A stretch of 64,000 nucleotides of DNA from Mytilus edulis. Taxonomy: Eukaryota. Below the pieces are notes generated by a model. The model saw only the letters and a program-made list of their open reading frames with translations, was not told the DNA's origin and ran no database searches. The position numbers were made by a program, and so were the translations under genes. Below are positions 13,135 through 60,752 of the stretch, one piece after another (the first letter of the stretch is position 1; every line of letters begins with the position of its first letter). The stretch covers positions 36,952,001 through 37,016,000 of the forward strand of contig NC_092357.1 of assembly GCF_963676685.1 (NCBI RefSeq), written 5' to 3'.

Positions 13135-14861
13135 ATGACAACCGATGAAATTGCATCATTCTGCAACATTTGCCTAACAAGGGACCAAAATAAGTTGGCT
13201 GAAGAATACTGTCCGCAATGTGAAGAGGCTCTTTGTGGAGACTGTCGACATCACCATAAGATATCGAAATCGACAAAATCACATCAGACAATATCTTTAG
13301 AAAAATATAACAAATTACCATCTTTCATCAAGCAAATAAAGCATAACTGTCAGGAGCATGACTGCTTTCTTGAATGTTATTGTAAATGTCATGACTCTCT
13401 GTGCTGCAAACGATGTTTGATATCGAGTCACAAGGAATGCAAGGAAACTATTTTCATTGAGGATTTTCTAACACCTTCTTCAAGATATCACTCCGTAGCT
13501 TTACATAACATTGAAAAAGCCCTCAAAGATCTAGAAATTAATATTTGTTCCGCTTTAAAGGACAGAAATCGAAATTTAATCGAGTTACGTGAACAGAAGC
13601 AGAAGATTTCAGAGCAAATTAAGGAAAAACGTCAAGAAATCAATACACGCTTAGACAATCTAGAAGATGCATTACTAGAAAAGGCATCTGCAATGGAGAA
13701 TGAATACTGTCTGAAAATAAATAAAGTGATTGCAAAATTAGAGGATGAAAAAAAAAAGTAGACGAAATTAAAGACGATATTGATTCTGTCAAAATGTTTG
13801 CATCCAATTTACAAATTTTCATGGGAACAAAGGCATTCCAGGAAAATGTTTCAACCAACGAAATGAACGTCCAAGTTTTATACGATAATGGGAATCTTAA
13901 CAACATCACCATGGAATGTACGTTCAATGAAAAATTGGAAGAGTTAAGAGATGAAATAATGTCATTTGGTGATATAAAGGTAGACAATTCTGATAAACAT
14001 ACTTCTTTTTCCTGGAACGGTGATAAATCAGCACAGATTTATAAATCTATATTAGGAGCAAAAACAACTGAAAACATAAATGTCCGACTGGTACTAGTAT
14101 GTAAGATTAACATAGATGTCAATGGCCTTTCTGGATGTGCCATATCAGAAGCTGGAAACATGATTTTTCTACACGAACACAGCAATAGTCTGATAAAATA
14201 TGCGCCTAATGGTGAATTTATTTCAAAATCGGTTATCAACCCACAGGCAAAAGGCATTGGGTATGACCTTGCATTGATTGAATCTAATACTGTAGCTGTA
14301 TCAAGTGGTGGAAACTACCCTCAACATATTTACTTGATTGATATGAATAGTACAAAAACGAGTCAAATTTTTCAACTTGGGGACTGGTGTTACGGTTTAA
14401 GCTACAACAACAATTCATTTATTTGTTGCACGAATAAGAATGGCATTAAAATATTTGACAGATCACATGACAATTTGACTAATGCCCGGATATTGCCAAA
14501 TGCACCTGGAATGGTGGATAATACCTACGTTACCTCAAATAAAAATCGCATTTTTCATTCAAACTGGCGTGACCATTCAGTTGTTTGTTACGATTTTAGC
14601 GGGCAGGTACAATGGAAATACTGCGATTCGATACTAAGACAACCGTTTGGCATCACATTAGATTCTTATTCTAACATTTATGTTGCTGGTTCTGAGTCAA
14701 ACAATGTCGTAGTGATATCCAAAGATGGAAAGCAGGCCAAAGAACTTATTGGAGCTAATGACGAAATTTCAAATCCACGCGCCATGTATTTTGATAAAAA
14801 CAAAAACCTACTTCTTGTCACAAACTATAAGGGATATGCATTCCTATTTAACGTTACATAA
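13135..14861 (+). pseudogene. TRIM-like B-box/coiled-coil/NHL-propeller gene, copy 1; single -1 frameshift (may be an intact gene with a sequencing error)
   Basis: ORFs 13135-13761 and 13794-14861 are collinear with intact copy 4. The break is at an A10 run (13748-13757) where A11 would restore frame. Confidence 0.85.
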
Positions 14862-17545: not shown

Positions 17546-18505
17546 AGTACGCCTGTCTATAAACGCTAACTGTCGACAGTCACGTAACAGTTCTATATTC
17601 AAGTTTGCTTTTTATGTTTATTGGATTTCTTTCCTAATATTCAGTCAAAAGAGTTCATGAATACTTTAGAAAAATGTATACCTTTTTTAATCAAACGATC
17701 AATTTTTGAAAACAGAACTTTAATAAAAATTACAAGGTTTAAAAACATTGAAAAGGACACATTTTTTAAAATGTTTATTGACGTGTTTTAAGTATGTCAA
17801 ATTCTAAATATTTCTATTTTAATTGCTTGCCACAAAGTGAGCAAATATCTTAAAGTAACCTGAATTCTCCAAATAACAAAAAAACAGTATTTTACTGGTA
17901 TGACATAAGACTATAAACATGATAAATGACTAGGTTCAATATTAAGGTCAGGTTATGCAAACATGTGATACTTTTAACAAATATTTGATATGTCAGTTAC
18001 TATCAGTAGATTAACACAGTTAATGGACAACAACAGTATTGATATAATTATCAATATTTCTATACGTTCAATGATGCAAATTTATAGCACGACTCCTTAC
18101 AAACAAAATCTAAGCAATAAAGGCTATCGGGTGTCTCTCTGTGACACCAAATCAGAATTTCCACAGCATAAAATTACTTGCAACAATCAAACGATGAGCA
18201 CTGAATTTTTGGTCTTCTTTTCAAAGTCACATGTCCATTCTTTAGTTAATGTTTGTGATGTGGATTTGAAATACGACCGTGTTAATGAAGAACTCCAATC
18301 AGGCTGTATCGGTTAATTCTATGTTTCAAAATTTTTAAATATTTTCTTGATTTTTGTTTTTTTTATGTCGTTTCCACAAAATGTACTACAATAAACTAAG
18401 ACAGGGTAAATAATTGAGATGTTACCATCATGTAGTATTGCAGTGAATCATATTATATTTGGAAGATCCATGTAATAGAAAGCAGTTAAATATCTTAAAT
18501 AATTT

Positions 18506-18797
18506 TGCTATCTTTATTTGTCTTACTTAAAGGCAAGATCAACAAGCATCATGTGAGCATAAACAGTAAAGTTTAAAGGTATGAAGATGATAAAGATGCT
18601 ATCTTTATTTGTCTTACTTACAGGCAAGATCAACAAGCATCATGTGAGCATAAACAGTAAAGTTTAAAGGTATGAAGATGATAAAGATGCTATCTTTATT
18701 TGTCTTACTTAAAGGCAAGATCAACAAGCATCATGTGAGCATAAACAGTAAAGTTTAAAGGTATGAAGATGATAAAGATGCGATCTGTATTTGTCCT
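18506..18797. repeat. 91-bp tandem repeat, about 3.2 copies
   Basis: atctttattt recurs at 18510, 18601 and 18692. The paralogous site 47650-47757 has only about 1.2 copies. Confidence 0.95.
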
Positions 18798-22080: not shown

Positions 22081-23199
22081 TTTAGATTAACGGTACGAGA
22101 CAAACACAAAATAAAAACCAGCAAACTAGAATTAAGACAATAGAGTATTTAACTAAGAGTATTTGCAATTACTGGTAATGTGTTCTAAACTAGTTGCAAC
22201 TTGTACTGAGATAAATCTTGTTCTCCCAGATTGAAGTATCATTCAGTACACAACCAACTGGTCCAAGGACACAGTTATCTTCCTTTGGTTTTCGTTGTCT
22301 ATAGTCCCTAGTGTAAACAGTGTATAACTTGCATGTTTTATTTGATACACTTTCCCAATTTATTTCTTGGTATTAAATGCATGAAATATTAAGTAGGGGA
22401 TGTAATTACATCTTAAAAAAATAATTGGGTGCTGAATCTTTATGTTAAGTAGTGATTTGGTCCAGTTCAAAAAGGTCAAATTCTATCACGTCTGAAGCTG
22501 TCAAACTGAATTTTACATTCCCTTAACACAGAATTGTCAATATTTTGAGTTAGAGCTGGTAGAAGATTTCTATAATTTTGATATTTTTTGTCTCACTGGT
22601 AGTACACTACACTGTAAAAATCTTTTTGAAAAAGAGCAGGTGCGATTGTTTAAATTTGAATTTATTGTCTAAAAAAAAATGCACTACAAAATAACTGTGT
22701 TCTCGGGCCAACTGATTTATTTATTAAGAAACGTCTGGTATACCTTGTATACTTACATATATTTCCATATACAGTGAAGGTTGTAGAAAAATGGTAGTCC
22801 GAAGGTTTTGACCACCAAAATTGTGCATTAGAAATAATAGTTAGGACCAGAAGATGTTCTTTAAAGAGCACCATAGAAAAAACGATATTTAGAACTTCAA
22901 GATATCTTAGCTTTATACAAAAAAATCCTGTTTTTATATTTGTTGTTTTAAATAACATAATCATGATATTGTAAAGACACCTTAACAACAAAAAATAGAA
23001 AAATGTGCTAACAATATTTCAGTTTTATTAAGGTTGAGCCGGTAATTGTTGAAATGTATAGTTTATGAAATTGCGATCTTTATTCATATATTATATGTAT
23101 ACTAGTGCGTAATATGTCCAGCCTTCTTGTGTTTTTATCAGCCGAGTACATTAAAATACACACAAACTCATGTTGGTTATTCAAGTTAAAAGAAGAATA

Positions 23200-23392
23200 A
23201 ATAAGGCCGTTAGTTTTCTCGTTTGAATTGTTTTACATTGTCATATCGGGGCCTTTTATAGCTGACTATGCGGTATGGACTTTGCTCATTGTTGAAGGCC
23301 ATTTGGTGACCTATAGTTGTAAATGTCTGTGTTATTTTGGTCTCTTGTGGACAGTTGTCTCAATGGCAATCATACCACATCTTCTTTTTTAT
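23200..23392. repeat. SINE-like repeat fragment in the opposite orientation
   Basis: ggccgttagttttctcgtttgaattg...gctgactatgcggtatgg...ggcaatcataccacatctt; reverse complement of the 50095 family. Confidence 0.75.
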
Positions 23393-23935
23393 ACAAACAA
23401 TAACTGTAGATTTTCTCTGGTGAAAAATTTCTATAATTTGGTCATACATGTACAAAGAACGAATGTTTACTTGTTGTTACCATAGCAACTATTTTACTGA
23501 TATTACATGGTTAAACTTTATATCAATTTTCTTCTTCATTGTATTAATACAATGGTTCACTGGTAATAATGTATTCACGTTGATTATTTAAGGTGTAATC
23601 TATTGTAAAATGTACTGAGTTTTGTAAAGTTCACGTGAAGGTTACATGAATGTTTCACATGTATGCTCTTTTGATGTGAATTTTACGTTAAATATTTGAA
23701 CTGAATTTTACCTGAGAGGCAAGTGACTGGATAAAAGTTTGCCCTGTAGGACCCATAATAGTGTCTTTTAAAGGAACCTATAATGGATTGCTGGAAAACT
23801 AATCACATAACGATGTGCATGTATTGTGTTTTCTTGAAGGACAATCTTTTCAACCTGCCATTTAACTAATATTAAAATTAATATTAAAAATACTATGTAC
23901 TGAATCAGACTTATCAAATAAAGTCCAGACCAAAG

Positions 23936-25685: not shown

Positions 25686-26615
25686 TTGAGAAAGAAAATG
25701 GGGGAGGGAATGTGTCAAAGTGACAAAAACCCGACCATAGAGCAGACAACAACCGAAGACTACCAATGGGTCTTCAATGTAGCGAGAAACTCCCGCACCC
25801 GGAGGCGTCCTTCAGCTAGCCCCTTAAAAATATGTATACTAGTACAGTGATAATAGACGTCATACTAAACGAATTATACACAAGAAACTAAAATTAAAAA
25901 TTATGCAAGACTAACAAAGGCCAGAGGCTCCGGACAGGCGTAAAATTGCGGCGGGGTTAAACATGTTTATGAGATCTCAACTCTCCCCTATACCTCTAGC
26001 CAATGTAAAAAAGTAAACGCATAGCAATACGCACATTAAAAATCAGTTCAAGAGAAGACCGAGTCCGATGTCAGAAGATGTAACAAAAGAAAATAACTAA
26101 ATGACAATAATACATAAAAGAAAATAAATAAAATGACAATAATACTTAAAAGAAAATAAATAAAATGACAATAATACATAAAAGAAAATAAATAAAATGA
26201 CAATAATACATAAAAGAAAATAAATAAAATGACAATAATACATAAATAACAACAGACTACTAGCAGTTAACTGACATGCCAGCTCCAGATCTCAATTAAA
26301 CTGATTGAAAGATTATGTCTTCATCATATGAATACCAGGCACAATTCCTCCCGTTAGTGGTTTAGTATCATACTTTCATAAAATATACGAGAAGAACATA
26401 ACCCGTGTCATGCTAACAACTGTTTTTTTTAAATAAATGTGTTTAGTTCCGATGCGCAGACCCTATAAGTGAATCAATATTAAAACCAAAATATGCAATC
26501 TTTAATGACCTGACAACAATATCGTAACTATATCCCTTCTTAATAAGTCTGTTTAAAGGTTTTGTAAGCTTTTGAGGTGAATACTGACATGTTTGTGCTT
26601 TGTGAAGAGTATTAC
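25686..26615 (-). mobile_element. Retroelement 3' fragment (Penelope-like ORF C-terminus plus 3'UTR)
   Basis: ORF 26443-26661 ends KLTKPLNRLIKKGYSYDIVVRSLKIAYFGFNIDSLIG and is followed by a long repeat UTR. The family assignment is from recall. Confidence 0.55.
26086..26246. repeat. 32-bp tandem repeat, about 5 copies
   Basis: Unit aaagaaaataaataaaatgacaataatacata. Confidence 0.9.
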
Positions 26616-29115
26616 CATAATTATAGTTATATAATTTTAATTCCATACTTATTTTATTCATAGTAAGCAGCCATCTTTGTTGGTTAGCTGTTGCACAATT
26701 TTATCCAATGGTAAAAGAGACCACACAAAAGGGACAAAATAAGCATTGTTTACAATCAGATTTTTGCATGTGCCTGTAATTCAGTGGTTTTCGTTTGTTG
26801 CTATACATATATATATCATTGTTTTACGTCCATAGTTTTGTACATAATAAAGCCTATAAATTTCTCATTTGAATTTATCGTGATTTGTCATATCTAGGCC
26901 TCCTTGGCAATTATACTACATCTTCTTGTCTTTATTTTTACTAGTATGCACCCTTGTCCCATATGAATATCGGATACCCAAGATATATCCTAGTGTCGGA
27001 TTGCTTTCTTTAATCTTTATTATTATTGTCATTGGGATTTTTTTTTCTGACAGGCAATTGTCAAATAATGTCACGAACAAGTCGTTATTTCAATTACAAA
27101 AAAATATTGAAAAGATATCCTGACTGAATTACAACTTTGACGGACTGTGCATTATGCCATTACACTTACACAATTGTATATTTATAATTGTGCCTCTGTA
27201 TCTCCTTATGTCGTAGGAACTACAATCGATCTCAGTTCTGTTATATATAGTGCGATCTACACCATTCGTAAAAATGATCTTAAATGTTAACTTGGCATGC
27301 CATACTTGATGAAATGCGGACGTGAAAGAAAGCACTCTTCATGTACGCGTCAATGGAAATTTCATTCCCAAAGATTTCATCATTTAGCATGCGAAGAAGG
27401 TTGTACTAAACCAATAACATAACTGAAAGTTTTTTAATGGAAACATTATGATTTCGATATGTGAAAAACTGGGATAAAAACATGAAAATCATGGGCATGA
27501 ATCGGATGCATTCTTATTGAGGACCGAAGACAATTCAGATCACTGACATTGTTTCTGAGTTAGACATGTTAGAACAACCACATGCTGCATGATAAAAATA
27601 TTTCAAGTGAAATGCAAATTTTGATTATTACAAAATGTACCCTTAACCATTTCATGGTAAACAGGGACCAAACAATTCGGCATATTCTCATGGCATTACT
27701 TTTCACTGAAATTATTTTTCCATTTGAGAACATTTTATTATGAACTGGAAACAAATTAAACTAAAATATGAATATGTGTCCATAATAAATATGAACATGT
27801 TATAAGACATTTATTCAATAATTATTGGTACCTCAAAACTGTTTAAAAGAAGAATGTTATAATGTAATGCAAAAAGGGAAGTTATATAGGCCCTGATTTA
27901 CAATGCATTATGGGAAACACTTGCTAACTACCCAAACTTAATCATATGATTAAAAATTAATCGAATGATTAGTAAATTCAATGATTAAAATTAGTTGAAC
28001 AACGCAAATTAATCATTGTATTAACTAATCATGCGATTAACATTTGACGATTAATATGATTAGTTTAATCACAAGTTGAACAACAGACCACAGATATTTA
28101 AACCATTGCTATAAAGTGTATGTGTCCTACTTGACATTTATACACTTGTCACAGGTAAAATCAATAATCGCAAATAGTGTGAATTTAATCTATGAAGTTA
28201 CACAATAGCGTAAAGTCCGAGGATTTTATAATCAGGTAAGAAAGGGGGAATGGTACTTAATTAAAAAAAAAATGTCATAGATGTTTGGTTTTAAATGTTT
28301 TGTATCAAGTCAAAGTCTCCAATCCTTTCAGCCGACAAAAACAAAACTACTCGCACACTGTACAGTACACACATGTCGAAAGCGTTCAGTTTAATCATAA
28401 CAAACGTATCGTTGCTTTATCAAGTAAATTCCACATTAGGAAAGCATATTGTTTTGCTAATCAATAAGATATTATTTAACCACTACACAATTACAAGTAG
28501 AATGATCATGCATCTATTGTTGCAATATTTATCTTTAGATGTATAAAATGCATTTCCTCGTGTAATGTATAGTATAATTGATCTGGTAACTAATAATACA
28601 CATGTAAAACAACATCAAATAGTTTGACGTTGATGAGTTGGTATTTGATAGAGTTTGCGTTTTACCACAATATCTTTAAGGCGCTACTGACCATTTCCTG
28701 GCACCTTACATGCCTTCGTTCATGATATTCCAATTCAAGTTTAAATCAAGAAAACATGGCAGCATATATTCAAGTGCGTTTGGAATGTCGTTATCATAAC
28801 ATGATTAAATGATCAATACGTCGAGTTAGTGACATGAGGTTGAAATATCAAAAAACAATTACAAACAAAAAATAATTAAAAAAACAGAGAAAAAGGGGTC
28901 CCGTCTTTTAGCGCCTCTGTTAATAATATATAGTGAAAATAAAAATCTGGATAGCAATTGGTCTTGAAATCTTGAGTATGATGAATATGACATTAACACC
29001 TTTTAAATATTATTTTCATATTTGTCCTTAGGTTGAAAAAGTGGATTGCATATGAAGAAATGTCAAAATGTTAAGGCACTATATTTAACATACAAAAAGA
29101 TATCAAACTACAGAT

Positions 29116-30831
29116 ATGGCCACCGACCAAAGTGTATTACTCTGCGATGTTTGCAAAAAAAGACACCTTAATAAGTCAGCGGAGGAATATTGTCCACAAT
29201 GTGAAGAGGCTCTGTGTCGTGAATGTAGAGATCATCATAAGTTATCGAATTTGTTAAAATCGCATCAGACAATCACGGTAGACAAGTATAAGAAATTGCC
29301 ATCCTTCATCAAGCAAATTAGCCAAAACTGTGAGGAGCATGACTGCTTCCTTGAATTTTATTGCAAATCGCATGACGCACTTTGTTGTAAACTTTGTTTG
29401 ATATCCGGTCATAAGGAATGCAAGGGAACTATTTTCATTGAAGATTTTCTTAAGCCATTAACTGGGCATCAGTCAGCAGCTTTAGATAATATTGAAAAAG
29501 TTCTGCAAGATTTGCAAAATAACATTTGTTCCGCTATAAAGGACAGAAATCGTAATTTGACTGAAATACGCGAACAGAAGCGGGTAATTGGAACACAAAT
29601 TAAAGAAAAGCGTAAAATAATCAATAAACTTTTAGACTATTTAGAAGAAGAATTACTACAAAAGGTATCTACACTTGAAAAGACAAACTGTCGGGAAATT
29701 GAAGAAATAATTACGAAATTAGAGGATGAAAAAGTAAAAGTCGACGGAATTCAAAAAGATGTTGAATCTGTTAAAATGTTTGCTTCTTATCTGCAAATCT
29801 TCATGGGAACAAAGGCATTCCAGGAAAGCATTTCAACCAATGAAATCAACGTCCAACAATTATATAACAACGGGAGCTTAAACAACGTGACAATGAAATG
29901 TACTTTTAATGAAAAGCTAGAGGGGTTTATAAAACACATAAAAACATTTGGTGATGTAGAAATTGATAAAAGTGAAAAACATGTTTCTTTTTTATTTAAA
30001 GGGGACAAATCGGCACAAATTTTTAAACCTATGTTAGTGGCAAAATCGATTGAAAATATAAACGTCAGGTTAGGATGTAGGATTAAGATAAACAGCAAAA
30101 GTATATCTGGATGTGCAATATCACAAGCTGGAAACATGCTTTTTCTACAAACACACAGCAATAGTATGATGAAATATGCGCCTAATGGTAATTTCATTTC
30201 AGAATCAAGTATCAACCCAGAACCAAGCGGCTTTGGGTATGACCTTGCAGTTATTGATTCTAATACGGTAGCTGTATCAAGTGGTGGAAATAACCCTCAA
30301 CAAATTCACTTGATTGATATGAATAGTACAAACACGAGTCAAGTTTTTCAACTGGGCGACTGGTGTTGCGGTTTAAGCTACAGCAACGATTCATTTATTT
30401 GTTGCACGTATCATAATGGCATAAAAATATATGACAGGTCAAACTCTAACGTCCGGATACTTCCAAATTCTCCCAAATCGGCGGATCATACCTACGTTGC
30501 CTTAAATGCAAATCACATTTTTCATACCAATTGGCGTGATAATTCTGTTGTATGTTACGATTTCAATGGGCAGATACAATGGAAATATGTCGATTTTACA
30601 TTGCTTAGAGAACCATATGGCATCACATTAGATACTTATTCGAATGTTTATGTTGCAGGTTGTGACTCGAACAATGTAGTCGTGATATCTCCAGATGGAA
30701 AAAAGGCAAAGGAGCTAATTGGAGCTAGTGATAAACTTACAAATCCTCGTGCCTTGTTCTTTCATAAAACAAAACACTTGCTTCTAGTAGCAAACTATAA
30801 CAATGGCGCCTCGGTGTATGATGTTATGTAA
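29116..30831 (+). CDS. RING-less TRIM-like protein (B-box1, B-box2, coiled coil, NHL-like beta-propeller), 571 aa, copy 2
   Basis: B-box1 CDVC..CPQC..CREC..H..H; B-box2 CEEH..CKSH..CKLC..HKEC; heptad-rich helix; NHL-like PYGITLDTYSNVYVAG..NNVVVIS and NPRAL. Acceptor AG at 29031. Confidence 0.92.
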   Translation: MATDQSVLLCDVCKKRHLNKSAEEYCPQCEEALCRECRDHHKLSNLLKSHQTITVDKYKKLPSFIKQISQNCEEHDCFLEFYCKSHDALCCKLCLISGHKECKGTIFIEDFLKPLTGHQSAALDNIEKVLQDLQNNICSAIKDRNRNLTEIREQKRVIGTQIKEKRKIINKLLDYLEEELLQKVSTLEKTNCREIEEIITKLEDEKVKVDGIQKDVESVKMFASYLQIFMGTKAFQESISTNEINVQQLYNNGSLNNVTMKCTFNEKLEGFIKHIKTFGDVEIDKSEKHVSFLFKGDKSAQIFKPMLVAKSIENINVRLGCRIKINSKSISGCAISQAGNMLFLQTHSNSMMKYAPNGNFISESSINPEPSGFGYDLAVIDSNTVAVSSGGNNPQQIHLIDMNSTNTSQVFQLGDWCCGLSYSNDSFICCTYHNGIKIYDRSNSNVRILPNSPKSADHTYVALNANHIFHTNWRDNSVVCYDFNGQIQWKYVDFTLLREPYGITLDTYSNVYVAGCDSNNVVVISPDGKKAKELIGASDKLTNPRALFFHKTKHLLLVANYNNGASVYDVM

Positions 30832-33800
30832 AGCAAAAACATACAATAAACCTTTTTTTCAAATGGAATCACATATGTGTTACTAAATTCAGAATTGAAT
30901 AAAAGCCTTGGAGTAAATTTTATCTAGAGTAAATCTTATTTTCAGGCCTCAATGACGACTAGCAAGCCATCTTACACACATATCAATTCCTAAAAGACAA
31001 AAGAAATCTATTTCTATCTATCAATCACTGTTTCGTCAATGCTCAATCGTAATTATAATCACATATTTTAACAGATTGTTGTCTTGAACTGAATACCTTC
31101 CCAAACAGTAGGTTGAAATTTATAACTTTAATTTTAAAAGTTTCAAAAATCATTTTGTTTCAGTCCTGTCCTTAAAATTACATCATTCCGAAATTTCCGT
31201 TGAAGTTTTTATAAATTCTTTAAAACAAAATTCTAAAAGTAAGAAGTACTAAGCTATTGGAAATATGAAATAATCAGACCCTTATCTTCAAAAATTTTAT
31301 GCAAAAGTTTTATTGAAATTAATTAATAGAATGATTGTTACTTGTCCTTATGACGTAGTTAGTCGTTTTTAGTTAAAAAAAATATTGTAACGAGCAATAA
31401 CAAAGGGAAATATGCACACGTGTTTAATAACACAAGGTATACGTCATTGATATATGTAACTATAGTTACTCAAATCCCAAGATGGAGGACGTAGAATTCT
31501 GAAAAACGTTTCTTAAAATTTATAGAAAAAGAATAGTTTGATATATTTGTTTGTTGAACCAAAAAAGGGAGAAAAACTATCCAAATCCATTTCTTAACTC
31601 GTAAATAATCATGTCAGATGGAAAACGTTTTAGTTGGATGATGTATGTAAACAACGTAAAATTGACTAAAGATCGTTGTTTTCTTTGCGTCCAGTGGCAA
31701 CAACTTTCGTATTTAAAAAAGCAATTGATAATTGAACACAATTTTTGCATATCATCATTGTCAATTAGTTATACTTATAGAAGGGAAATGGGGGTGAATG
31801 CTTCAATATCTAATTATACTGATTGCTTATTCTTTTCCGAAAATTTCGACAATTGGTATGAGTTGACGATCATATCACATCGTATTTATAAAGCTATATT
31901 TCAAATGAGGATCATCTTCGTTCGAGTTAAATAACAGATGATTTTAATTTTATATGGTATAAAACTGAGTATCAAGTACGGTATCATTTCAATTGACTGA
32001 TTACTTGCTTTTTTGCGTTATGACAAGAGGGAACAATAAAAAAAATCATGCATTTTAAAAATCATCAGTTAAAAACTACAATAAGAGCAATTTTAAGAAA
32101 TTGTCCTTTGATCTTACTGACTGATAACTTCCTTTCTCGTCACAGTGTTATGCAAAATTGTCGCTAGAAATTAAGAGCGCAGTTTCCCGATGTCAATGAA
32201 ATTAACAAAGTCGTCATAAGTAAAATAGCGATAAACAGATTATCATTGGTCATCTCAAGGCAACAAAATCAATCTCGTTGAGATGGTAAACGATAATCTA
32301 TAAATAATAATACTATCATGACCAGTTATAATATTTTAAGAATAAAACATATAGTATCTTGAATGGTTGACTTGCGTATAACGCCACTGTCAGCACTAGT
32401 GTCCTTTTCGTAGTTTTTATTGATGGAGGAGCCGAATGGTCTAGAGAGAACCACCGACCTATGGCCAGAAAATTGACAATTAAAATTAGAGTCGAAAAAC
32501 ATAAGTGTTTGCAGACAAATAATACAGTAGTTCGACTTATTATACCACTCGAACATCTTGTTACCTTCTATGTATTTAATTAATGTTGAAAACCAAAGAC
32601 TTATCTATCTAAAAAAGTATAGTTTGTATTTGTGTCAAATTAAGTTTAAGTAAGGTAAGGAACCAAACGTTGTGTACTGGGGAATTGCTGTACTGATTTA
32701 TTAAGGAGACAAAAGGTTTGCATTTCAATATTGTGTAGTTTATATTTGTATTTGTTTACTCAAAAGAGATTGGGGCAATTGATTCTACATAAACAAAGGC
32801 AACAGTAGTTTATCCCTGTTCAAAAGTCATGAATCGATTGAGAGAAAACAAAGTCAAGTTACAAAATGAAATACACATATTACAGTCTTTGTAGTATATT
32901 CCTTATGTACATGAGAGACCGTCTTCATACAACATGTCTTATTTTCACGACAAACACTCGACTTGGGTAAACTTTCAGCCCAGGATTAACGTCGATTAAA
33001 AAAAAATCAAAATCTATCCTTCATTTATCGGTCACACAAAAAGGTTCTTAAATGAATGTTGTTAAATTACGTAATCAATAGAGAGAAGGTTATCCAGATA
33101 TTTCTGATATCGATATGTGTCCCACTTGAACTGATATATAACACACTTGTGTACGTGTATTCTTACAGGTAAAATCAATCAGTATAGATACAAAAGTTTA
33201 AATGTATGAAGATACACAACAACTACAATTGGTATGATGTAACAATCAGGTAGGAACAAGTAAAATTCTAAATTCTGAATTGCATAAGGCGTCATATCTG
33301 TTTTTCAATTGATCGCCCTTAAAATAAATTTTTTGAAATCTTCAATCCAGCAACAACAAAAGTACACGCAAAACCACACCCGTAGACCAAACAGTACACA
33401 AAGTATGGCGGCCTATATAAAAAGGAGAAACAAAGAAAACTTATAAACAACACAAACAAACGACAAAATTCACATCAATTAATTATAAGAATGATTTTGA
33501 ATGGAACTAAAAGATATCAACACGTAAGAGTATGATGTCCTTGGTCGGATAAGAAAGCGTACATGATACTGCAAGTCAAACTACACATTGTTTGTTCTTA
33601 TAGAAATAAACGCGGAAAAAAATTATCTGGTAATTAGATCATATATGCGTATCAATTTAGGATATGCGTGTGCCTTTCCGCTTCTATAATTGTTCGTGTA
33701 ATGGGGTTTGCTCTTTTAACCCTATATCTTAAGAGATGCCTACATTAATCTGGCACCTGAGTATATACTATTCCTGTACAGTTTTAAAATTAGAAAAGTA

Positions 33801-34020
33801 GGCCAGCAAATAAACTACTTTTAATGTACTTGTTGAATAAGTGAAAATAACTTAAAATTATAAAGAACATGTACTAACAAACTTATTTAAAGTTTTTTTT
33901 TATTACACTCAGAGTCTGTATCAAAGTCTCATTCTAGTTCAAATGTAAGTGTAGGAATCAAATGTAAGTTTACTAAAAAAAAGACGTCTGACTAGTTTAT
34001 CATGTATTATCTTTTATATA
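30832..34020 (+). repeat. Triplicated intergenic spacer (also ~36411-40370 and 60753-64000)
   Basis: Collinear sequence from the stop codons of copies 2, 3 and 6 through the 81-nt exon of the next unit. Confidence 0.9.
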
Positions 34021-34700
34021 AAGTTATTTCAAACGTGTCTCATCGGCAATCATACCACATCTTCTTTTTTTTATATTTGTTTAAAACTACAAAAAATCAA
34101 AGAATTTCACACAGTGTGTACAATTATCTGAACTTCTCACTTCTCAATTATTACTCATTATTCCCCAATCAAAATCAGCTGTCCGATTTGAGTCAACAGC
34201 AGTTTTAAAATAGGTATTCAAGTCATTACAATTCATTTAAAAAATGCAAATCAAGGTGAAAATTTCCATGAAAAGGAGCAAGACCGGGCTTGTCAATACG
34301 CTAAACAGTTGTTTGTTATGTATGCATGACTTGTCGTTCGAAACTAACAGATTTTATTTGTTCAATTTCCAACACTGATGCTACTTTTATTTCTTTTTAA
34401 TTTTTAAACATCGTAAAAGACAAAACATTGCATGCACTTCTAAGTTTAATTTATTCTTAGGTCATATGATTTTTCAATACCTACATTTTTTAGGTGGGAT
34501 TTTTATTGGGTTTTGTTAATTCATTTTGTTCCAACGTAAGCTTAAGTAATTGTCGGACTTGTTAGGTGCTTATTGTGCTTTTTAGTAAACATAATTTTAT
34601 ATATTTTTTTCATAGGATCAAAGTGTTGATGGTAGATTGGAAGAGATTAATGTTATGAGGCACCATCTTTGACCTTAAATACTACAGAACAAATTCAGAT

Positions 34701-36410
34701 ATGGCCACTACGGAAATAGCAACATTCTGTGATATTTGCCTAATCAGGGACCTAAATAAGTTGGCGGAAGAATTCTGTCCACAATGTGAAGAGATTCTTT
34801 GTGGAGATTGTCGAAATCATCATAAGATATCTAAATCGTCAAAATCACACCAGACCATCTCTATAGGCAAATATAACAAATTACCATCGTTCATCAAGCA
34901 AATAAAGCATACCTGTGAGGAGCATGACTGCTCCCTTGAATTTTATTGCAAATCTCATGACTCTCTTTGCTGCAAACTGTGCTTGATATCAGGACATAAG
35001 GAATGCAAGGAGACTATTTTCATTGAAGATTTTCTTACGCCATCACAAGGACACCAATCAGCAGCTTTATCTAACGTTGAAAAAGTTCTAATAGATCTGG
35101 GTGATAACATTAGTTTCGCTATAAAGGACCGAAATCGAAACATGAAAGAACTACGTGAACAGAAGAGGGTTATTGTAGAAAAAATTAAAGAAAAGCGTCA
35201 AGAAATAAATACAGTTTTGGACCATTTAGAAGGAGAATTACTAGAAAAAGTATCTGCACTAGAGAAGACAAACTGTCGGGAAATAGAAGAGATAATTACG
35301 AAATTGGAGGAAGAAAAAGAAAAGTTAAACGAAAATCAAAAAGATGTTGAATCTGTGAAAATGTTTGCTTCTAATCTGCAAATCTTCATGGGAACAAAGG
35401 CATTCCAAGAAAGGATTTTAACCAATGAAGTCAACGTCCAACAAGTATATGACAACGGGAGCTTAAACAACGTGACAATGAAATGTACTTTCAATGAAAA
35501 GCTAGAGGGGTTTATAAAACACATAAAAACATTTGGTGATGTAGAAATTGATAATAGTGAAAAACGTGTTTCTTTTTCATGGAAAGGTGACAAGTCAGCA
35601 CAATTTTTTAAGTCAGAAGCAAAATCTATTGAAACCATAAACGTCAGGTTAGGACGTAGGATTAACATTAATAGCAGAAGTATTACTGGATGTGCCATAT
35701 CAGAAGCTGGAAACATACTATTTCTACAATTACACCGCAATAGTATGATGAAATATGCGCCTAATGGTAAATTTATTTCAGAATCACGTATCAAGCCAGA
35801 AGCAAGCAGCATTGGGTATGACCTTGCAGTGATTGATTCTAATACTGTAGCTGTATCAAGTGGTGGAAATCCCCCTCAACAGATATATTTGATTGATATG
35901 AATAGTACAAACATGAGTCAAGTTTTGCAACTGGGCGACTGGTGTTGCGGTTGAAGCTACAGCAACGATTCATTTATTTGTTGCACGTATCATAACGGCA
36001 TAAAAATATATGACAGGTCGAACTCTAACGTGCGGATACTTCCAAATTCTCCCAAATCGGCAGGTGGTACCTACGTGGCCTCAAATGCAAATTGCATTTT
36101 TCATAGCAATTGGTGTGATGATTCTGTTGTATGTTACGATTTCAGTGGGCAGGTACAATGGAAATATATCGATTCTTCATTGCTTAGAAAACCATACGGC
36201 ATCACATTAGATACTAATTCGAATATTTATGTTGCAGGTTCTGACTCGAACAATGTAGTCGTGATATCTCCAGATGGAAAACAGGCGAAAGAGCTAATTG
36301 GAGCTAGTGACAAACTTACAAATCCTCATGCTTTGTTCTTTCATAAAACCAAACACTTGCTTCTAGTAGCAAACTATGACAATGGCGCCTCGGTGTATGA
36401 TGTTATTTAA
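34701..36410 (+). pseudogene. TRIM-like copy 3 with a single in-frame nonsense codon
   Basis: TGA at 35952-35954 where paralogues have TTA (Leu). The downstream ORF 36030-36410 is in the same frame and otherwise intact. Confidence 0.88.
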
Positions 36411-39134
36411 GGCAAAAAAAAACAATGAACTTTTTTTCAAATAGAATCACATATGTGTTACTAAATTCAGAATTTAATAAAAGCCTTGGAGTAAATTTTA
36501 TCTAGAATCAATCCTATTTTCAGACCTCAATGACGACTAGCGAGCCATCTTACACACATATCAATTCCTAAAAAACACGAGAAATCTATTTCTATCTATC
36601 GATCACTGTTTCGTCAATGCTCAACCGTAATTATAATCACATGTTTTAACAGATTGTTGTCTTGAACTCAATGCCTTCCCAGGCAGTAGGTTGAAATTTA
36701 TAACTTTAATTTTAAAAGTTTCATAAATCAATTTGTTTCCGTCCTGGCTTTAAAACTACATCATTCCGAAATTTCCGTTGAAGTGTTTATAAATTCTTTA
36801 AAGATAAATTCTAAAAGTAAGAAGTACTAAGCTATTGGAAATATAAAATAATCAGACCCTTTTCTTCAAAATTTTTATGCAAAAGTTTAATTGAAATAAA
36901 TTGATAGAATGATTGTAATTTGTCCTCAATACGTAGTTTGTCTTTTTAATTGGGATGGTTTTGTGATGAGACTAACAAAGGGTGATATGTTATATGTCAA
37001 TGAGGCAACAACTAAAAATCAAAATTTACCGATAATCAAACACAGGGCTACATACTGTCATTAATCATGCACACGTGTTAAATAACACAAGGTATACATC
37101 AATGAAATATGTAGCTATAGTAACAGAAATACTTTAATGGAGGACGTAGAATTCTGAAAAAAAAAAAACGTTTCTTAAAATTTGTAAAAACGAATAGTTT
37201 TATATGTTTGTTTGTTTGTACCAAAAAAGGGAGAATTACTAGAAATTATTGATGGAGAAGTAAAGAGAAAAAATCAACTGTTGAAAAATTAAATTATGTC
37301 AGTTAAGTAAATGAAAATAAAGATATCGGTGACAGCTAATGATTATGATGTCAGTATTCAAAACCATTTCTGAACTAAATAATCATGTCAGATGGAAAAC
37401 TTTCTAGTTAGATGATGTAGATTAACAACGTAAAATTGACTAAAGATCGTTGTTTTCTTTGCGTCCAGTGGCAACAACTTTCGCATTAAAAAAAGCAATA
37501 GATAATTGAACACAATTTTTGCATATCGTCATTGACAATTAGTAATACTTATAGATGGGAAATGGGGGTGAATGTTTCAATATCTGATTATACTGGTTGC
37601 TTATTCTTTTCGACAATTGGTGTGGGTTGACAATCATATCACATCGTATTTATAAAGCTATATTTCAAATGAGGATCATCTTCGTTCGAGTTAAATAACA
37701 GATGGTTTTAATCTTATATGGTATAAAACTGAGTATCAAGTACGGTATCATTTTAATTGACTGATTACTTGCTTTTTGCGTTATGACAAGAGGTAACAAT
37801 AAAAAGAAATCGTGCATTTTAAAAATCATCAGTTAAAAACTACAATCAGAGCAATTTTAAGAAATTTTACTTTGATCTTACTGACTGATTACTTCCTTTC
37901 TCGTCACAGTGTTATGAAAAATTGTCGCTAGAAATTAAGGGCGCAGTTTCCCGATGTCAATGAAATTAACAAAGTCGTCATAAGTAAAATAGCGATAAAC
38001 ATATTATCATTGGTCATCTCAACTTGATTGCTTTCTAATTTTTGGTGTACCGTCTTAGGAAGAAAATCAATCTCGTTGATACGATAAACGATAATATATT
38101 AATAGCAATACTATCATGACCAGTAATAATATTTTAAGAATAAAACATATAGTATCTTGATTGGTTGACTTGCGTATAACGCCACTGCGAGCACTAGTGT
38201 CCTTTTTTGTAGTTTTTATTGATGGAGGAGCCGAATGGTCTAGAGAGAACCAACGATCTACGGTCAGAAAATTGACAATTAAGATTAGAGTCGATAAACA
38301 TAAGTGTTTACAGACAAATAATACAGTAGATCGACTTATTATACCACTCGAACATCTTGTTACATTCTATTCACTTTTAAATTAATGTTTAATACCAAAT
38401 ACTTGTCTATCTAAAAAAAGTATATTTTGCATGTGTCATATTAGGTTTAAGTAAAACAATGGACTAAACGTTGTGTACTGGGGAAATTACTGTACTGATT
38501 TATTAAGCAGACAAACTGTTTACATGTGTAGTTTATATTTGTATTTGTTTACTCAACAGAGATTGGGGCAATTGATTATACATAAACAAAGGCAACAGTA
38601 GTTTATCCCTGTTCAAAAGTCATAAATCGCTTGAGAGAAAACAAAGTCGAGTTACAAAATGAAATACACATATTACAGTCTTTGTAGTATATTCCTTAAA
38701 TTCGTGAGACGGATTTGAAGTACATGAGAGACCGTCTTCATACAACATGTCTTATTTTCACGACAAATTATCAACTTGGGTAAACTTTCAGCCCAGGATA
38801 AACGTCGATTAAAGAAAAGAAATCAAACTATCCTTCATTTATAGGTCACACAAAAAGGTACTTAAATGAACGTTGTTAAAAAACGTAATCAATAGAGAGA
38901 AGTTTATCAAGATATTTCTGATATCTATATGTGTCCCACTTGAACTGATATTTAACACACTTGTGTACGTGTATTCTCACAGGTAAAATCAATAAGTATA
39001 GATAGAAAAGTTTAAATGTATGAAGATACACAGCAACTATAATTGATATGATGTTACAATCAGGTAAGAACAAGTAAAATTCTAAATTCTGAATTTCATT
39101 ATGTCTGTTTTTCAATTGATCGCCCTTAAATCAA

Positions 39135-39714
39135 AGGAGTAGGTCCGGTAAGGACCGATTTTGGCCTCAAATTTCAGGTTCATCTAACGAAAGTTTATGA
39201 ACACTTTTTAAACACTTAAGTGTCTACTTTAATTGATTCGATTAGTTTATGTAAAAGATTTTAACTGATTTAGTCATAAAAACGCTCTGATTCAAGCTTA
39301 AATACGAAAAATCTATAAAATATGCCAAAAAACGTCACTTTTCAGATGGTTTTTGTCAAAAATGAAAGTGGCCGCATCCGTGTTCATCCTCAACCTTTAT
39401 ATAGGTTTTGTATTATCATCAAATACAACTTCCATTTCAATATTATGAATGAACACGAATGCGGCCACTTTCATTTTAGACGGAAACCGTCTAAAAAATT
39501 AACCTAAATGCTAAAATTTTGAAGATTTCAGTAATTTAGCATGACTTAATGATGCTAGTACGCGATATGTGTGCATTGCATTGTCAAAAACAGGCCATAG
39601 TTATGTAGCAGAAGCATTATACTTTCCAAAATATAGCTTAAAGATTGCATTTTCACAATTTTGTAAAACTGCTATATTTTGGGGCCACAAAGGGGTCTTA
39701 CTGAACCTACTCCT
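39135..39714. mobile_element. Kolobok-like MITE (TIR AGGAGTAGGT..GTAAG)
   Basis: Starts aggagtaggtccggtaagg and ends tcttactgaacctactcct. Absent at paralogous sites near 33325 and 63470. Its right end matches 53062-53125. Confidence 0.8.
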
Positions 39715-41531: not shown

Positions 41532-43253
41532 ATGGCAACCGATGAAATTGCATCGTTCTGCAACATTTGTCTAACAAGGGACCAAAATAAGTTGGCTGAA
41601 GAATACTGTCCGCAATGTGAAGAGGCTCTTTGTGGAGACTGTCGACATCATCATAAGATATCGAAATCCACAAAATCACATCAGACAATCTCTTTAGAAA
41701 AATATAATAAATTACCATCTTTCATCAAGCAAATAAAGCATAACTGTGAGGAGCATGATTGCTTTCTTGAATGTTATTGTAAATGTCATGACTCTCTGTG
41801 CTGCAAACGTTGTTTGATATCAAGTCATAAGGAATGCAAGGAAATTATTTTCATTGAGGATTTTCTAACACCTTCTACCGGATATCACTCCGTAGCTTTA
41901 CATAACATTGAAAAAGCCCTCAAAGATCTAGATACTAATATTTGTTCTGCTATAAAGGACAGAAATCGAAATTTAACCGAGTTACATGAACAGAAGCAGA
42001 AGATTTCAAAGCTAATTAAAGAAAAACGTCAAGAAATCAATACACGTTTAGACAATTTAGAAGATGCACTCCAAGAAAAGGCATCTGCAATGGAGAATGA
42101 ATACTGTCTGAAAATAAATAAAGTGATTGCAAAATTAGAGTATGGAAAAAAGAAAGTAGACAAAATTATAGAAGATGTTGATTCTGTCAAAATGTTTGCA
42201 TCCAATTTACAAATCTTCATGGGAACAAAGACATTCCAGGAAAATGTTTCAACCAATGAAATTAACGTCCACGAATTGTGTGATAATGGTAAGCTCAACA
42301 ACTTCACAATGGAATGTACGTTCAATGATAAACTGGAAGAGTTAAGGAACGAAGTAAAGGTATTTGGTGACATAAAGGTAGACAATTGTGATAAACATAT
42401 TTCTTTTTCCTGGAGAGGTGATAAATCAGCACAGCTTTATAAATCTACATTAGGAGCAAACTCTATTGAAAATATAAATGTCACACTTGTTCGTAAGATT
42501 AACATAAATGTCAATGGCCTTTCTGGATGTGCCATATCAGAAGCTGGAAACATTATGTTTCTACACGACCACAGCAATAGTCTGATAAAATATACGCGTA
42601 ATGGTAAATTTATTTCAAAATCGGTTATCAACCAACAGGCAAAAGACATTGGGTATGACCTTGCAGTGATTGATTCTGATACGGTAGCTGTATCAAGTGG
42701 TGGAAACGACCCTCAACAGATTTACTTGATTGATATGAATACTACAAAGACCAGTCAAGTTTTTCAACTTGGGGACAGGTGTTACGGTTTAAGCTACAAC
42801 AACAATTCCTTTATTTGTTGCACGCATATGAATGGCATCAAAATATATGACAGATCGCACGACAATTTGACTAATGCCCGGATATTGCCAAATGCACCTG
42901 GAATGGTGGCTTATACCTACGTTACCTCAAATAAAAATCGCATTTTTCATACAAACTGGCGTGACCATTCTGTTGTTTGTTACGAATTAAGCGGGCAGGT
43001 ACAATGGAAATACTGCGATTCGATACTAAGACAACCGTTTGGCATCACCTTAGATTCTTATTCTAACATTTATGTTGCTGGTTCTGAATCAAACAATGTC
43101 GTAGTGATATCCAAAGATGGAAAGCAGGCCAAAGAACTTATTGGAGCTAATGACGGAATTTCAAATCCACGCGCCATGTATTTTGATAAAAACAAAAACA
43201 TACTTCTTGTCACAAACTATAAGGGATATGCATTCCTATTTAACGTTACATAA
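41532..43253 (+). CDS. RING-less TRIM-like protein, 573 aa, copy 4
   Basis: Same domain layout as copy 2 and closest to copy 1. Acceptor AG at 41447. Confidence 0.92.
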   Translation: MATDEIASFCNICLTRDQNKLAEEYCPQCEEALCGDCRHHHKISKSTKSHQTISLEKYNKLPSFIKQIKHNCEEHDCFLECYCKCHDSLCCKRCLISSHKECKEIIFIEDFLTPSTGYHSVALHNIEKALKDLDTNICSAIKDRNRNLTELHEQKQKISKLIKEKRQEINTRLDNLEDALQEKASAMENEYCLKINKVIAKLEYGKKKVDKIIEDVDSVKMFASNLQIFMGTKTFQENVSTNEINVHELCDNGKLNNFTMECTFNDKLEELRNEVKVFGDIKVDNCDKHISFSWRGDKSAQLYKSTLGANSIENINVTLVRKININVNGLSGCAISEAGNIMFLHDHSNSLIKYTRNGKFISKSVINQQAKDIGYDLAVIDSDTVAVSSGGNDPQQIYLIDMNTTKTSQVFQLGDRCYGLSYNNNSFICCTHMNGIKIYDRSHDNLTNARILPNAPGMVAYTYVTSNKNRIFHTNWRDHSVVCYELSGQVQWKYCDSILRQPFGITLDSYSNIYVAGSESNNVVVISKDGKQAKELIGANDGISNPRAMYFDKNKNILLVTNYKGYAFLFNVT

Positions 43254-50967: not shown

Positions 50968-52658
50968 ATGGCCACCAAAGAAAGTGCATTATTTTGCGTC
51001 ATTTGTCAATGCAAAGACATTAATAAATCAGCGGAATAATACTGTTCACATTGTGGAGAGGCTCTTTGTGGTGACCGCAGAGACAATCATAAGATATCGA
51101 GATTATCAAAATCACATCAAACAATCTCTATAGACAAATATAACAAATTACCATCATTTACCAAGTAAATTAGCCATAACAGTGAGAAGCATGACTGTAT
51201 CCTTGAATTCTATTGTAAATTTCATGACTCACTTTGTTGCAAATGTTGTTTGATATCAAGTCATAATGGTGCAAGAAAACTATTTTCATTGAGGATTTTC
51301 TAGCACCATCTTCAAGATAACAGTCAGCAGCTTTAGATAACGTTGAAAAAGTTCTAAACGATCTGGATGATAACATTTGTTTTGCTATAAAGGACCGAAA
51401 TCGAAATTTTACAAAATTATGTGAACAGAAGCGGGTGATCGCAGACCAATAAATGAAAAGCGTCTAGAAATTAATTTTTTAAACAATTAAGAAGTAGCAA
51501 TAATAGAAATATTATCTGCAACGGAGAAAGAATATTGTCAGAAAGTGATAGAAAAACTGAATGAGAGAAAGATGAAAGTAGAAGAAATTAAAAATGATGT
51601 CTAATCTATGAAAATGTTCGCATCCAATCTGCAAATCTTCATGGGACAAAAGACATTACAGGACAATGTATCTACTCATGAACTGAATCTGCAAGGTTTG
51701 TATGAAAATGGGAGCTTCGACAACTTTAAAATTATATGTATCTTAAATGAAAAACTAAACGGAATAATCAAAGATGTTAAAACGTTTGGTGATATAGATG
51801 TTAACAAATGTGAAAAGCATGCTTCTTTTTCATGGAAAGGTGACAAATCAGCACAAATTTTAATACCTATGACAGGAGACAACTCGATTGAAAACTTTAA
51901 CGTCAGGCTAGTACGTAGGAATAACATAGATGGCAATGATATTACTGAATGTGCCAGTTCAGAAAGTGGAGACATGTTTTTCTTCAATCACACCAATATT
52001 ACCTATTGATGTATCGACCTAACGGCGAATTCCATTCCAAATCACTTATCAACTCTGATCAATACAATGTTGGATATGAACTTGCGGTGGTTGGTTCAAA
52101 TACAGTAGCTGTATCATGTGGGGGGAATGATCCAAGACAACTTTTCTTAATTGATACAAATAGTACAGCAATACGTCAAGATTTTAACATTGACGGCTAT
52201 TGTTACGGCTTAAACTATCACAACGGATCTTTTATTTGTTGTACATCTGGATGTGGCATTCAACTATATGACATGTTGTCCCGCAAATTATCTAACATGC
52301 GGAAATTGACCAATGCAGTCCAACTGACAACTTAAACCTACGTTACATCAAATGAAAGCAGTATTTTTCATTCAAACTTTCGGGATAATTCTGCAGAATG
52401 TTACGATTTTAATGGACAAGTACAATTGACATATACTGATTCATTGCTGAAAAAACCATACGAGATTGCCTTAGATCCATATTTCAACATATGTATTGCT
52501 AGGTTTGATTCAAATATCTTAAGATGGGAAAAAAAGCCAAACAGCTCATTGGGGCTAGTGACGGAATTTTAAATCCTCTTGCCTTATTTTTCCATAAAAC
52601 CAAAAACGCACTTCTTGTTGCTAACTATGATGGAGTTGCCTTTCTGTTAGACGTTTAA
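50968..52658 (+). pseudogene. TRIM-like copy 5, decayed pseudogene
   Basis: Begins MATKESALFCVICQCKDINKSAE* and has many stops and frameshifts. Fragments 51608-52009 and 51949-52335 align to paralogues. Acceptor AG at 50883. Confidence 0.9.
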
Positions 52659-59036: not shown

Positions 59037-60752
59037 ATGGCAAACAACGAAAGTGCATCATTCTGCGTCATTTGCCAAAGCAGGGACCTTAATAAGTTAG
59101 CGGAAGAATACTGCCCACAATGTGAAGAGGTTCTTTGTGGAGATTGTCAACATCACCATAAGACATCGAAGTCGACAAAATCACATCAAACAATCCCTAT
59201 AGAGAATTATAAAAAATTACCATCCTTTATCAAGCAAATTACCCATAATTGTAAGGAGCATGATTGCTTTCTTGAATTTTATTGTAAATCTCATGAATCT
59301 TTTTGTTGTAAAATTTGTTTGATATCAGGCCACAAGGAATGCAAGGAAACTATTTTCATTGAAGATTTTCTTAAGCCATTACCTGGGCACCAGTCAGCAG
59401 CTTTAGATAATATTGAAAAAGTTCTGCAAGATTTGCAAAGTAACATCTGTTCCGCTATAAAGGACAGAAATCGAAATTTGACTGAATTACGCGAACAGAA
59501 GCGGGTAATTGAAGAACAAATTAAAGAAAAGCGTAAAGAAATCAATAACCTTTTAGACAATTTAGAAGAAGAATTATTACAAAAGGTATCTATACATGAA
59601 AAGACAAACTGTCGGGAAATAGAAGAAATAATTACGAAATTAGAGGACGAAAAAGAAAAAGTAGACGAAATTCAAAAAGAGGTTGAATCTGTCAAAATGT
59701 TTGCTTCTAATCTGCAAATCTTCATGGGAACAAAGACATTCCAAGAAAGTATTTCAACCAATGAAATCAACGTCCAACAAGCATATGACAACGGGAGCTT
59801 AAACAACGTCACAATGAAATGCACCTTTAGTGAAAAGCTAGAGGGGTTTATAAAACACATAAAAACATTTGGTGATGTAGAAATTGATAATAGTGAAAAA
59901 CATGTTTCTTTTTCATGGAAAGGTGACAAATCAGCACAAAATTCCAAACCGATGTCTGTGGCAAAATCGATTGAAAACATATACGTCCGGTTAGGAAGCA
60001 AGATTGATATAAATCATGACGGTATATCTGGATGTGCCATATCAGAAGCTGGAAACATGCTATTTCTACAAGCACATTGCAACAGAATGATGAAGTATGC
60101 GCCCAATGGTGAATTCATTTCAGAATCACGTATTAACCCAGAGGCAAACGGCATTGGATATGACCTTGCAGTTATTGATTCTAATACGGTAGCTGTATCA
60201 AGTGGTGGAAATACCCCTCAACAGATTTACTTGATTGATATGAAAAGTACAAACATGAGTCAAGTTTTGCAACTGGGCGACTGGTGTTACGGTTTAAGCT
60301 ACAGCAACGATTCATTTATTTGTTGCACGTATCATAACGGCATAAAAATATATGACAGGTCGAACTCTAACGTGCGGATACTTCCAAATTCTCCCAAATC
60401 GGCGGGTGATACCTACGTGGCCTCAAATGCAAATTGCATTTTTCATACCAATTGGCGTGATGATTCTGTTGTATGTTACGATTTCAGTGGGCAGGTAAAA
60501 TGGAAATATATGGATTCTTCATTGCTTAAAAAACCGTACGGCATCACATTAGATACTAATTCGAATATTTATGTTGCAGGTTCTGACTCGAACAATGTAG
60601 TCGTGATATCTCCAGATGGAAAACAGGCAAAAGAGCTAATTGGAGCTAGTGACAAACTTACAAATCCTCGTGCCTTGTTCTTTCATAAAACAAAACCCTT
60701 GCTTCTAGTAGCAAACTATAACAATGGCGCCTCGGTGTATGATGTTATTTAA
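59037..60752 (+). CDS. RING-less TRIM-like protein, 571 aa, copy 6
   Basis: Same domain layout; the body is closest to copies 2 and 3. Acceptor AG at 58953. Confidence 0.92.
   Translation: MANNESASFCVICQSRDLNKLAEEYCPQCEEVLCGDCQHHHKTSKSTKSHQTIPIENYKKLPSFIKQITHNCKEHDCFLEFYCKSHESFCCKICLISGHKECKETIFIEDFLKPLPGHQSAALDNIEKVLQDLQSNICSAIKDRNRNLTELREQKRVIEEQIKEKRKEINNLLDNLEEELLQKVSIHEKTNCREIEEIITKLEDEKEKVDEIQKEVESVKMFASNLQIFMGTKTFQESISTNEINVQQAYDNGSLNNVTMKCTFSEKLEGFIKHIKTFGDVEIDNSEKHVSFSWKGDKSAQNSKPMSVAKSIENIYVRLGSKIDINHDGISGCAISEAGNMLFLQAHCNRMMKYAPNGEFISESRINPEANGIGYDLAVIDSNTVAVSSGGNTPQQIYLIDMKSTNMSQVLQLGDWCYGLSYSNDSFICCTYHNGIKIYDRSNSNVRILPNSPKSAGDTYVASNANCIFHTNWRDDSVVCYDFSGQVKWKYMDSSLLKKPYGITLDTNSNIYVAGSDSNNVVVISPDGKQAKELIGASDKLTNPRALFFHKTKPLLLVANYNNGASVYDVI

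Follow-up and report, generated by a model that had tools for sequence, protein, structure and literature searches.

The genes described here encode RING-less TRIM-NHL-type proteins of the mussel Mytilus edulis, and it is highly likely that the top face of their predicted six-bladed propeller is under diversifying selection. The best explanation for this family of duplicates, and one that we regard as probable by analogy, is that it would constitute a repertoire of cytoplasmic sensors.

Six tandem copies of the gene lie within the window, the 64-kb stretch of M. edulis DNA that was analysed, each having a single coding exon some 571 codons long (Table 1). They belong to a cluster of 15 copies that spans the window within 135 kb, nine of them intact and six broken. 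A genome search reveals family loci grouped in clusters on several large contigs, at least 146 in total, this figure being the number scored among 1385 candidates, all 146 of which matched; 88 loci were fetched and 66 intact genes obtained from them. A DNA pattern for the first B-box was tried as a means of counting the family and rejected, having 96 matches versus 10 in the control yet missing most known members. A search for longer homologues yielded a single M. trossulus model of 1352 aa, which has B-boxes, lacks a RING match and probably represents merged neighbours; this speaks, weakly, against fused forms. Among the 48 homologues found, every one with a source name belongs to a Mytilus species, and where a protein matches a cluster gene exactly in the propeller, its source names it as M. 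edulis. The look-alike clusters in a protein atlas are mostly molluscan, and some have RING domains.

Table 1. Positions of the gene copies in the window and of the features of copy 2.
Feature	Position	Strand	Remarks
Copy 1	13135..14861	+	Frameshift near 13734-13760 in coiled coil; propeller frame open
Copy 2	29116..30831	+	Intact, 571 aa; B-box1, B-box2, coiled coil, linker, six-bladed propeller; no RING
Copy 3	34701..36410	+	Single in-frame stop at 35952-35954; chimera
Copy 4	41532..43253	+	Intact, 573 aa
Copy 5	50968..52655	+	Several frameshifts and stops; broken
Copy 6	59037..60752	+	Intact, 571 aa
Likely splice acceptor AG of 5' untranslated intron, copy 2	29030..29031	+	In-frame stop between AG and ATG
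Two B-box zinc fingers, copy 2	29140..29421	+	Residues ~9-52 and 70-102; PF22586 (below cut-off), PF00643
Predicted coiled coil, copy 2	29467..29937	+	Helices 118-222, 225-251, 266-274; TRIM28 match, E 2e-6
Predicted six-bladed NHL-type propeller, copy 2	30064..30825	+	AlphaFold2, 77 family sequences, pLDDT 94.6
d-a loop into blade 1, top	30091..30111	+	Selected site S18 (30094-30096)
b-c loop, blade 1, top	30145..30159	+	Selected site T37 (30151-30153)
A46, c-d loop, blade 1, bottom	30178..30180	+	Flagged site
d-a loop into blade 2, top	30220..30237	+	Selected sites E60-G63 (30220-30231)
b-c loop, blade 2, top	30283..30300	+	N84 (30292-30294), strongest site
d-a loop into blade 3, top	30355..30369	+	G105 and W107 weakly flagged: 0.5-0.6 with 9 genes, none with 12
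b-c loop, blade 3, top	30403..30414	+	Variable; unflagged in this cluster; same position flagged in clusters D, G and C1
d-a loop into blade 4, top	30478..30498	+	Selected sites S146 (30478-30480) and D148 (30484-30486)
H158, a-b loop, blade 4, bottom	30514..30516	+	Flagged site

Sequence comparison shows birth, decay and gene conversion of the copies. The first 160 codons of copy 3 (34701-35180) are 95-99% like those of L011, a copy about 50 kb upstream and outside the window, and the remainder resembles copies 2 and 6, an arrangement that suggests a recent conversion or an unequal crossover at the coiled coil as the origin of its N-terminal part. A large segmental duplication (12060-19628 and 40414-49152, 87-97% identical in pieces) carries copies 1 and 4, and copies 2, 3 and 6 lie with downstream DNA in duplicated blocks at 29004-34036, 34586-40404 and 58973-64000 (84-89%). 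Two more distant and almost identical members, L015 and L017, are 32 kb apart (G000:C14:37.098 and 37.130 Mb), and are either a recent duplication or a haplotype copy in the assembly. The window also contains a tandem repeat with a unit of about 707 bases and 99.6% identity (640-2435), a satellite of about 27 copies of 33-base units in which the open frames are not family genes (2583-3553), and a reverse-transcriptase-like fragment on the minus strand (5538-6122; RVT_1, E 3e-5, below the cut-off). High-copy repeats with heavy RNA-run cover (23197-23393 and 25760-26800) are probably inserted elements; they separate copy 2 from a conserved block that lies upstream of it, near 23629-23876.

A Pfam scan of 27 members at E 0.01 finds PF22586 in all 27 and PF00643 in 26, and the B-box1 pattern is present in all 66 intact genes. 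In the full-length model the first coiled-coil helix (118-222) is predicted to run for 105 residues, and helices 118-274 are followed by a disordered linker with too little space for a filamin domain. No RING family was found in any of the 27 members scanned with Pfam, only 4-31 residues precede the first CxxC in the 66 intact genes, and each of the six copies in the window has in-frame stops a short way before its ATG; judged by these sequences, the RING is absent from the family. Two B-boxes, a coiled coil and a six-bladed NHL propeller are shared with the TRIM-NHL proteins (subfamily C: TRIM2, TRIM3, TRIM32, TRIM56 and TRIM71, and fly Brat, Wech, Mei-P26 and Thin), of which Brat and Wech also lack a RING. 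The mussel genes match the architecture given for TRIM subfamily C in the consulted part of PMC3503706.

Contigs from runs X4 and X7 begin at the AG at 29030, carry extra letters ahead of it and cover the coding region, which fits a spliced transcript if, as we guess, these are RNA runs. In the raw RNA reads X23 and X24 copy 2 has a depth of 0-0.48, reflecting either weak expression or animals that lack the gene. Stretches of the copy 2 propeller recur free of any difference in contigs of other public runs (X1 records 1, 3, 5 and 7; X2 records 11, 14 and 15), and the copy 2 loops are thus not assembly errors. Contigs from four runs do not separate alleles from paralogues.

The closest solved structures to the predicted propeller are the NHL domains of TRIM3, TRIM2, Thin and TRIM71 (Z 30-31, with some 250 residues aligned at an rmsd of 2.3-2.6), and the top 11 structural matches are all TRIM-NHL domains (Z 29.9-31.1). 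Identity to solved NHL domains is 11-20%, and the Pfam NHL repeat PF01436 is detected in 10 of the 27 members, copy 2 not being one of them. The model, together with alignment to the NHL repeat, supplied the strand labels a to d, so that the mapping to faces is topological and not coordinate-based. In an NHL propeller the top surface is made up of the b-c and d-a loops, and in Brat this surface is the RNA-binding platform, according to the part of PMC4015489 consulted.

The initial annotation had listed seven hypervariable spots in copies 1, 2, 3, 4 and 6, in copy 2 at 30091-30111, 30145-30159, 30223-30237, 30283-30300, 30358-30369, 30403-30414 and 30484-30498. All of the quoted residue sets are present in the sequence, and the proposal that they map to one propeller face agrees with the predicted fold, all seven falling in d-a or b-c loops of blades 1-4 and so, by the standard topological definition, on the top. 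Their hypervariability relative to the flanks is also borne out: among the five copies, three or more residues occur in 16 of 72 top-loop columns, 3 of 50 bottom-loop columns and 4 of 131 strand columns (Fisher p 2e-5). The flanking strands are conserved, but the description of them as nearly invariant is too strong, with 89 of the 131 strand columns invariant. Nor do copies 1 and 4 differ in these loops by multi-base changes: each of the 11 nonsynonymous top-loop codon changes is of one base, and the changes seem multi-base because adjacent codons both change. This pair has 11 nonsynonymous and one synonymous codon changes in the top loops versus 18 and 11 elsewhere (p 0.06).

Codon site models were fitted with our own Python code, whose one-ratio likelihood equals that of IQ-TREE (-4722.87), and sites were called by naive empirical Bayes, likewise in our own code. 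For the propellers of the nine intact genes the likelihood ratio test (LRT) gives 17.6 for M1a/M2a, 25.2 for M7/M8 and 20.7 for M8a/M8, with similar values under F61, and M8 places omega at 2.97 on 5.4% of sites. Outside the propeller the LRT is 0.0 for the B-boxes and 2.4 for the coiled coil, and both are kept under purifying selection. Eleven of the 14 sites flagged in the nine genes at a posterior above 0.5 are in top loops, which make up 72 of 253 columns (p 9e-5; p 0.04 against the bottom loops alone); the three off the top face are A46 and H158 on the bottom and V183 at the end of a d-strand. Top-loop dN is 0.36-0.39 in blades 5 and 6 and 0.66-0.86 in the other blades, and this cluster therefore varies one sector of the face. 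Averaged omega is 0.55 over the whole top loops of this cluster and 0.62 over the whole spots, the latter indicating that only single residues exceed 1. Five of the seven spots contain selected sites, and to that extent the diversifying selection proposed for them stands; in this cluster the signal at DWCx is weak, and CT-xx goes unflagged. The selected top-face site S146 was absent from the original list.

Could such a signal arise without selection? Tolerant surface loops might vary neutrally, with conversion and uneven mutation rates mimicking selection at a few sites, and there is material here for such a reading: the PHI test shows recombination in the propeller (p 0.001), copy 3 is chimeric and 6 of the 15 cluster copies are broken. 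However, bottom loops are exposed too, and their dN is 0.23-0.47 versus 0.61-1.22 for top loops. When the propeller halves are given their own trees the LRT is 11.9 and 14.0, the higher value being that of the second half (blades 4-6), where the PHI test shows no recombination (p 0.41). Under a mosaic-tree null, with a separate tree for each blade and sites neutral at most, the largest LRT in 24 simulations is 5.5, with three above 3.84, compared to 20.2 observed. Gene conversion is real, but did not give rise to the selection signal in these 24 simulations.

Allowing double-base changes leaves an LRT of 15.6 for the nine genes, but when the whole rate is allowed to vary by site the signal is gone (LRT 1.7), and that model beats plain M8 by 7 log units, as happened in none of seven simulations made without rate variation. 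Rate variation among sites is real in these data, and dS reaches 1.83 in the blade 2 top loops. Among 36 data sets simulated under the site-wise rate null, two reach an LRT of 20 and none an omega of 2.9. The best fit for the nine genes is a model with independent dS and dN, in which the LRT is 14.7; the dS and dN estimates from the real data were confirmed with a second optimiser. A larger set of 12 propellers, in which the in-frame, masked propellers of three broken copies join the nine intact genes, gives an LRT of 44.5 plain and 36.1 with double-base changes. Synonymous-rate variation was modelled in two ways: the LRT is 10.8 with the site-wise model that removes the nine-gene signal, which thus returns, and 35.6 with the other. 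Nine of its 12 flagged sites are in top loops, and flagged sites have a dS of 1.08 and a dN of 3.56, values that apply to sites picked on the same data.

The analysis was repeated in seven other clades of 4-10 genes each, 43 genes in all, with 14 of the 66 intact genes omitted as belonging to small or deep groups. Several features recur. First, the propeller LRT is 58.1, 53.4, 29.3, 6.0, 22.0, 5.2 and 7.7, while in the same clade order the N-terminal half gives 5.3 (a weak signal, in cluster B), 0.9, 3.2, 0, 0, 0 and 0.7; omega is 2.5-5.8 in seven of the eight clusters. Second, flagged sites are enriched on the top face in all seven, with 13/16, 14/17, 21/27, 18/30, 10/12, 37/69 and 6/8 in top loops, which account for 25-27% of columns. 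Third, 20 positions are flagged above 0.9 in at least two of the eight clades, 18 of them in top loops, at equivalent places in all six blades. Fourth, dS is flat over the structural classes and dN is 2-4 times higher in top loops than in strands in all eight clusters. Finally, clades B, D, E and G, the four of the seven that were tested under three controls, all survive, with LRTs of 10.3-16.6, 18.7-47.2 and 11.2-33.6. In a held-out test, positions chosen from the other clades have a dN above the gene-wide dS in six of eight clades (1.5-3.7), the exceptions being C2 (1.08) and this cluster, where they are not fast (dN 0.82); with local dS such tests are significant in only two of eight clusters (B and F). 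Of 28 proteins examined, seven are homologues from other assemblies that share 80-90% of their propeller residues with a cluster gene; their differences from that gene affect 130 of 507 positions on the top, 45 of 349 on the bottom and 86 of 917 in strands. Codon site models with recombination screening thus find sites with dN/dS above 1 that are concentrated on the top face, and do so again in seven other clusters; the earlier inference of a diversifying face is supported at the level of the family, and for this cluster with the caveats given above.

The two halves of the protein can have separate histories. The N-terminal halves of the clade F genes hardly differ (dS 0.05) and their propellers have a dS of 0.39, which fits conversion of the scaffold; these dS values, with a top-loop omega of 1.9, are found for L063, L064, L067 and L068 (G000:C1:66.69-66.90 Mb). 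Three homologues from other assemblies also resemble a single cluster gene much more closely in one half than in the other, namely P0020 with L009 (96%/83%), P0013 with L008 (77%/90%) and P0022 with L008 (75%/89%), and the sequences of these three proteins suggest module shuffling across the genus Mytilus.

The coiled coil of TRIM proteins forms a dimer, and their B-boxes drive higher-order assembly. By extension from known TRIMs, the coiled-coil dimer of the mussel proteins would hold two propellers and the B-boxes would assemble the proteins on a repeated target, each copy binding a different, probably foreign (pathogen-derived) molecule in the cytoplasm. With the RING missing, such a protein would need a RING-bearing partner or would act by assembly alone. 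To call the variable loops a 'ligand-binding surface', as the initial annotation did, goes one step beyond the selection data and is a deduction from them.

Two other roles for a variable top face seem unlikely. One is that these are RNA regulators like Brat, each copy using its top face to read, and repress, an RNA of its own, be it from the host, a transposon or a virus. The domain order is that of RING-less TRIM-NHL proteins, RNA-binding NHL domains are among the top structural matches, and the RNA site of Brat is on the top face (consulted part of PMC4015489). According to the same part of that source the top face of RNA-binding NHL domains is uniformly positive, whereas by a crude residue count the net charge of the top loops ranges from -5 to +5 in this cluster (-2 in copy 2) and from -6 to +7 over the 66 genes, a spread that makes a shared role of this kind less likely. 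A dN/dS of 3-6 is likewise not expected from regulation of host RNA, and a version with viral or transposon RNA as the target would merge with the sensor reading. An equally improbable alternative is that pathogen effectors pursue the propellers as decoys or mimics, or that the propellers act as variable adaptors delivering host proteins to TRIM ligases that possess a RING, the face either escaping binding or tracking its host partners. The lack of a RING in 27 of 27 members, the existence of RING-bearing look-alike clusters in molluscs and the presence of flagged sites on both faces are all in keeping with this. On the other hand, in each of the six blades the fast positions fall at the same two places in the loops, which is where propellers bind their ligands, a pattern that would fit gain of binding better than escape. 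The neutral account is more doubtful still, and is largely refuted at the family level; the 12-sequence set and four other clusters survive the rate model.

The sensor reading draws on a comparison with teleost finTRIMs and primate TRIM5alpha, in which clustered, lineage-specific expansion is accompanied by recombination and by positive selection in loops of the C-terminal binding domain, with omega 2.6-3.0 (PMC2657112, in the part consulted). The mussel family resembles these in its clustered expansion with positive selection in loops of a predicted ligand face. It differs in that finTRIMs and TRIM5alpha have a variable B30.2/SPRY domain and a RING, finTRIMs are virus-induced and binding by TRIM5alpha is proven, whereas the mussel genes have a predicted NHL propeller and no RING. 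The family is therefore not a member of this group, having neither RING nor SPRY, and by analogy would work like it. TRIM-NHL proteins in turn are described in PMC4015489, as far as consulted, as encoded by 3-5 genes per genome and as having a positively charged, RNA-binding top face; by comparison the mussel family has at least 146 single-coding-exon genes with neither RING nor filamin domain, and a top face that is fast-evolving and variable in charge.

Large numbers of such genes have been noted before. Table S52 of PMC7653742 gives 1133 B-box and 1410 six-bladed-propeller genes in M. galloprovincialis, enriched among dispensable genes, and a bivalve B-box orthogroup is reported as expanded in the consulted part of PMC8382680. 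The dispensable mussel genes are very probably the same family, a likeness drawn from domain counts. Oyster resistance to herpesvirus disease and to Dermo goes along with multigene families labelled 'TRIM', for the most part 'TRIM2/3-like', in the parts of PMC6971885 and PMC9892467 consulted; these may belong to the mussel family. Variable propellers occur in lineage-specific immune-type proteins of amphioxus and oysters (PMC8195603, in part). The main texts of PMC4346834, PMC8678459, PMC7653742, PMC12373286 and PMC10514466, and four supplements of the last, do not mention TRIM, B-box or NHL genes. In the parts consulted, PMC7653742, PMC8382680 and the oyster reports deal with counts or expression; the present analysis deals with architecture, predicted structure and selection. 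Family size and presence/absence variation are thus already published, and a report of selection on the NHL top face in molluscs was not found in the open-access literature, to which the search was confined.

The many, resistance-linked 'TRIM2/3-like' transcripts of bivalves are usually read as ubiquitin ligases, but the genes in the mussel lack a RING and show the pattern typical of variable receptors, which makes this family, among the largest in mussels, a testable recognition system with named residues. Their predicted NHL fold, of a kind otherwise known for conserved RNA reading, would serve as a diversifying scaffold for binding. We give even odds to the broader proposition that mussels, and probably other marine invertebrates, may possess hundreds of germline-encoded, RING-less NHL-propeller receptors as a cytoplasmic counterpart of TRIM5alpha and the finTRIMs, with a B-box/coiled-coil scaffold swapped by conversion, a top face engaged in an arms race, and individuals that differ in which of the genes they possess.
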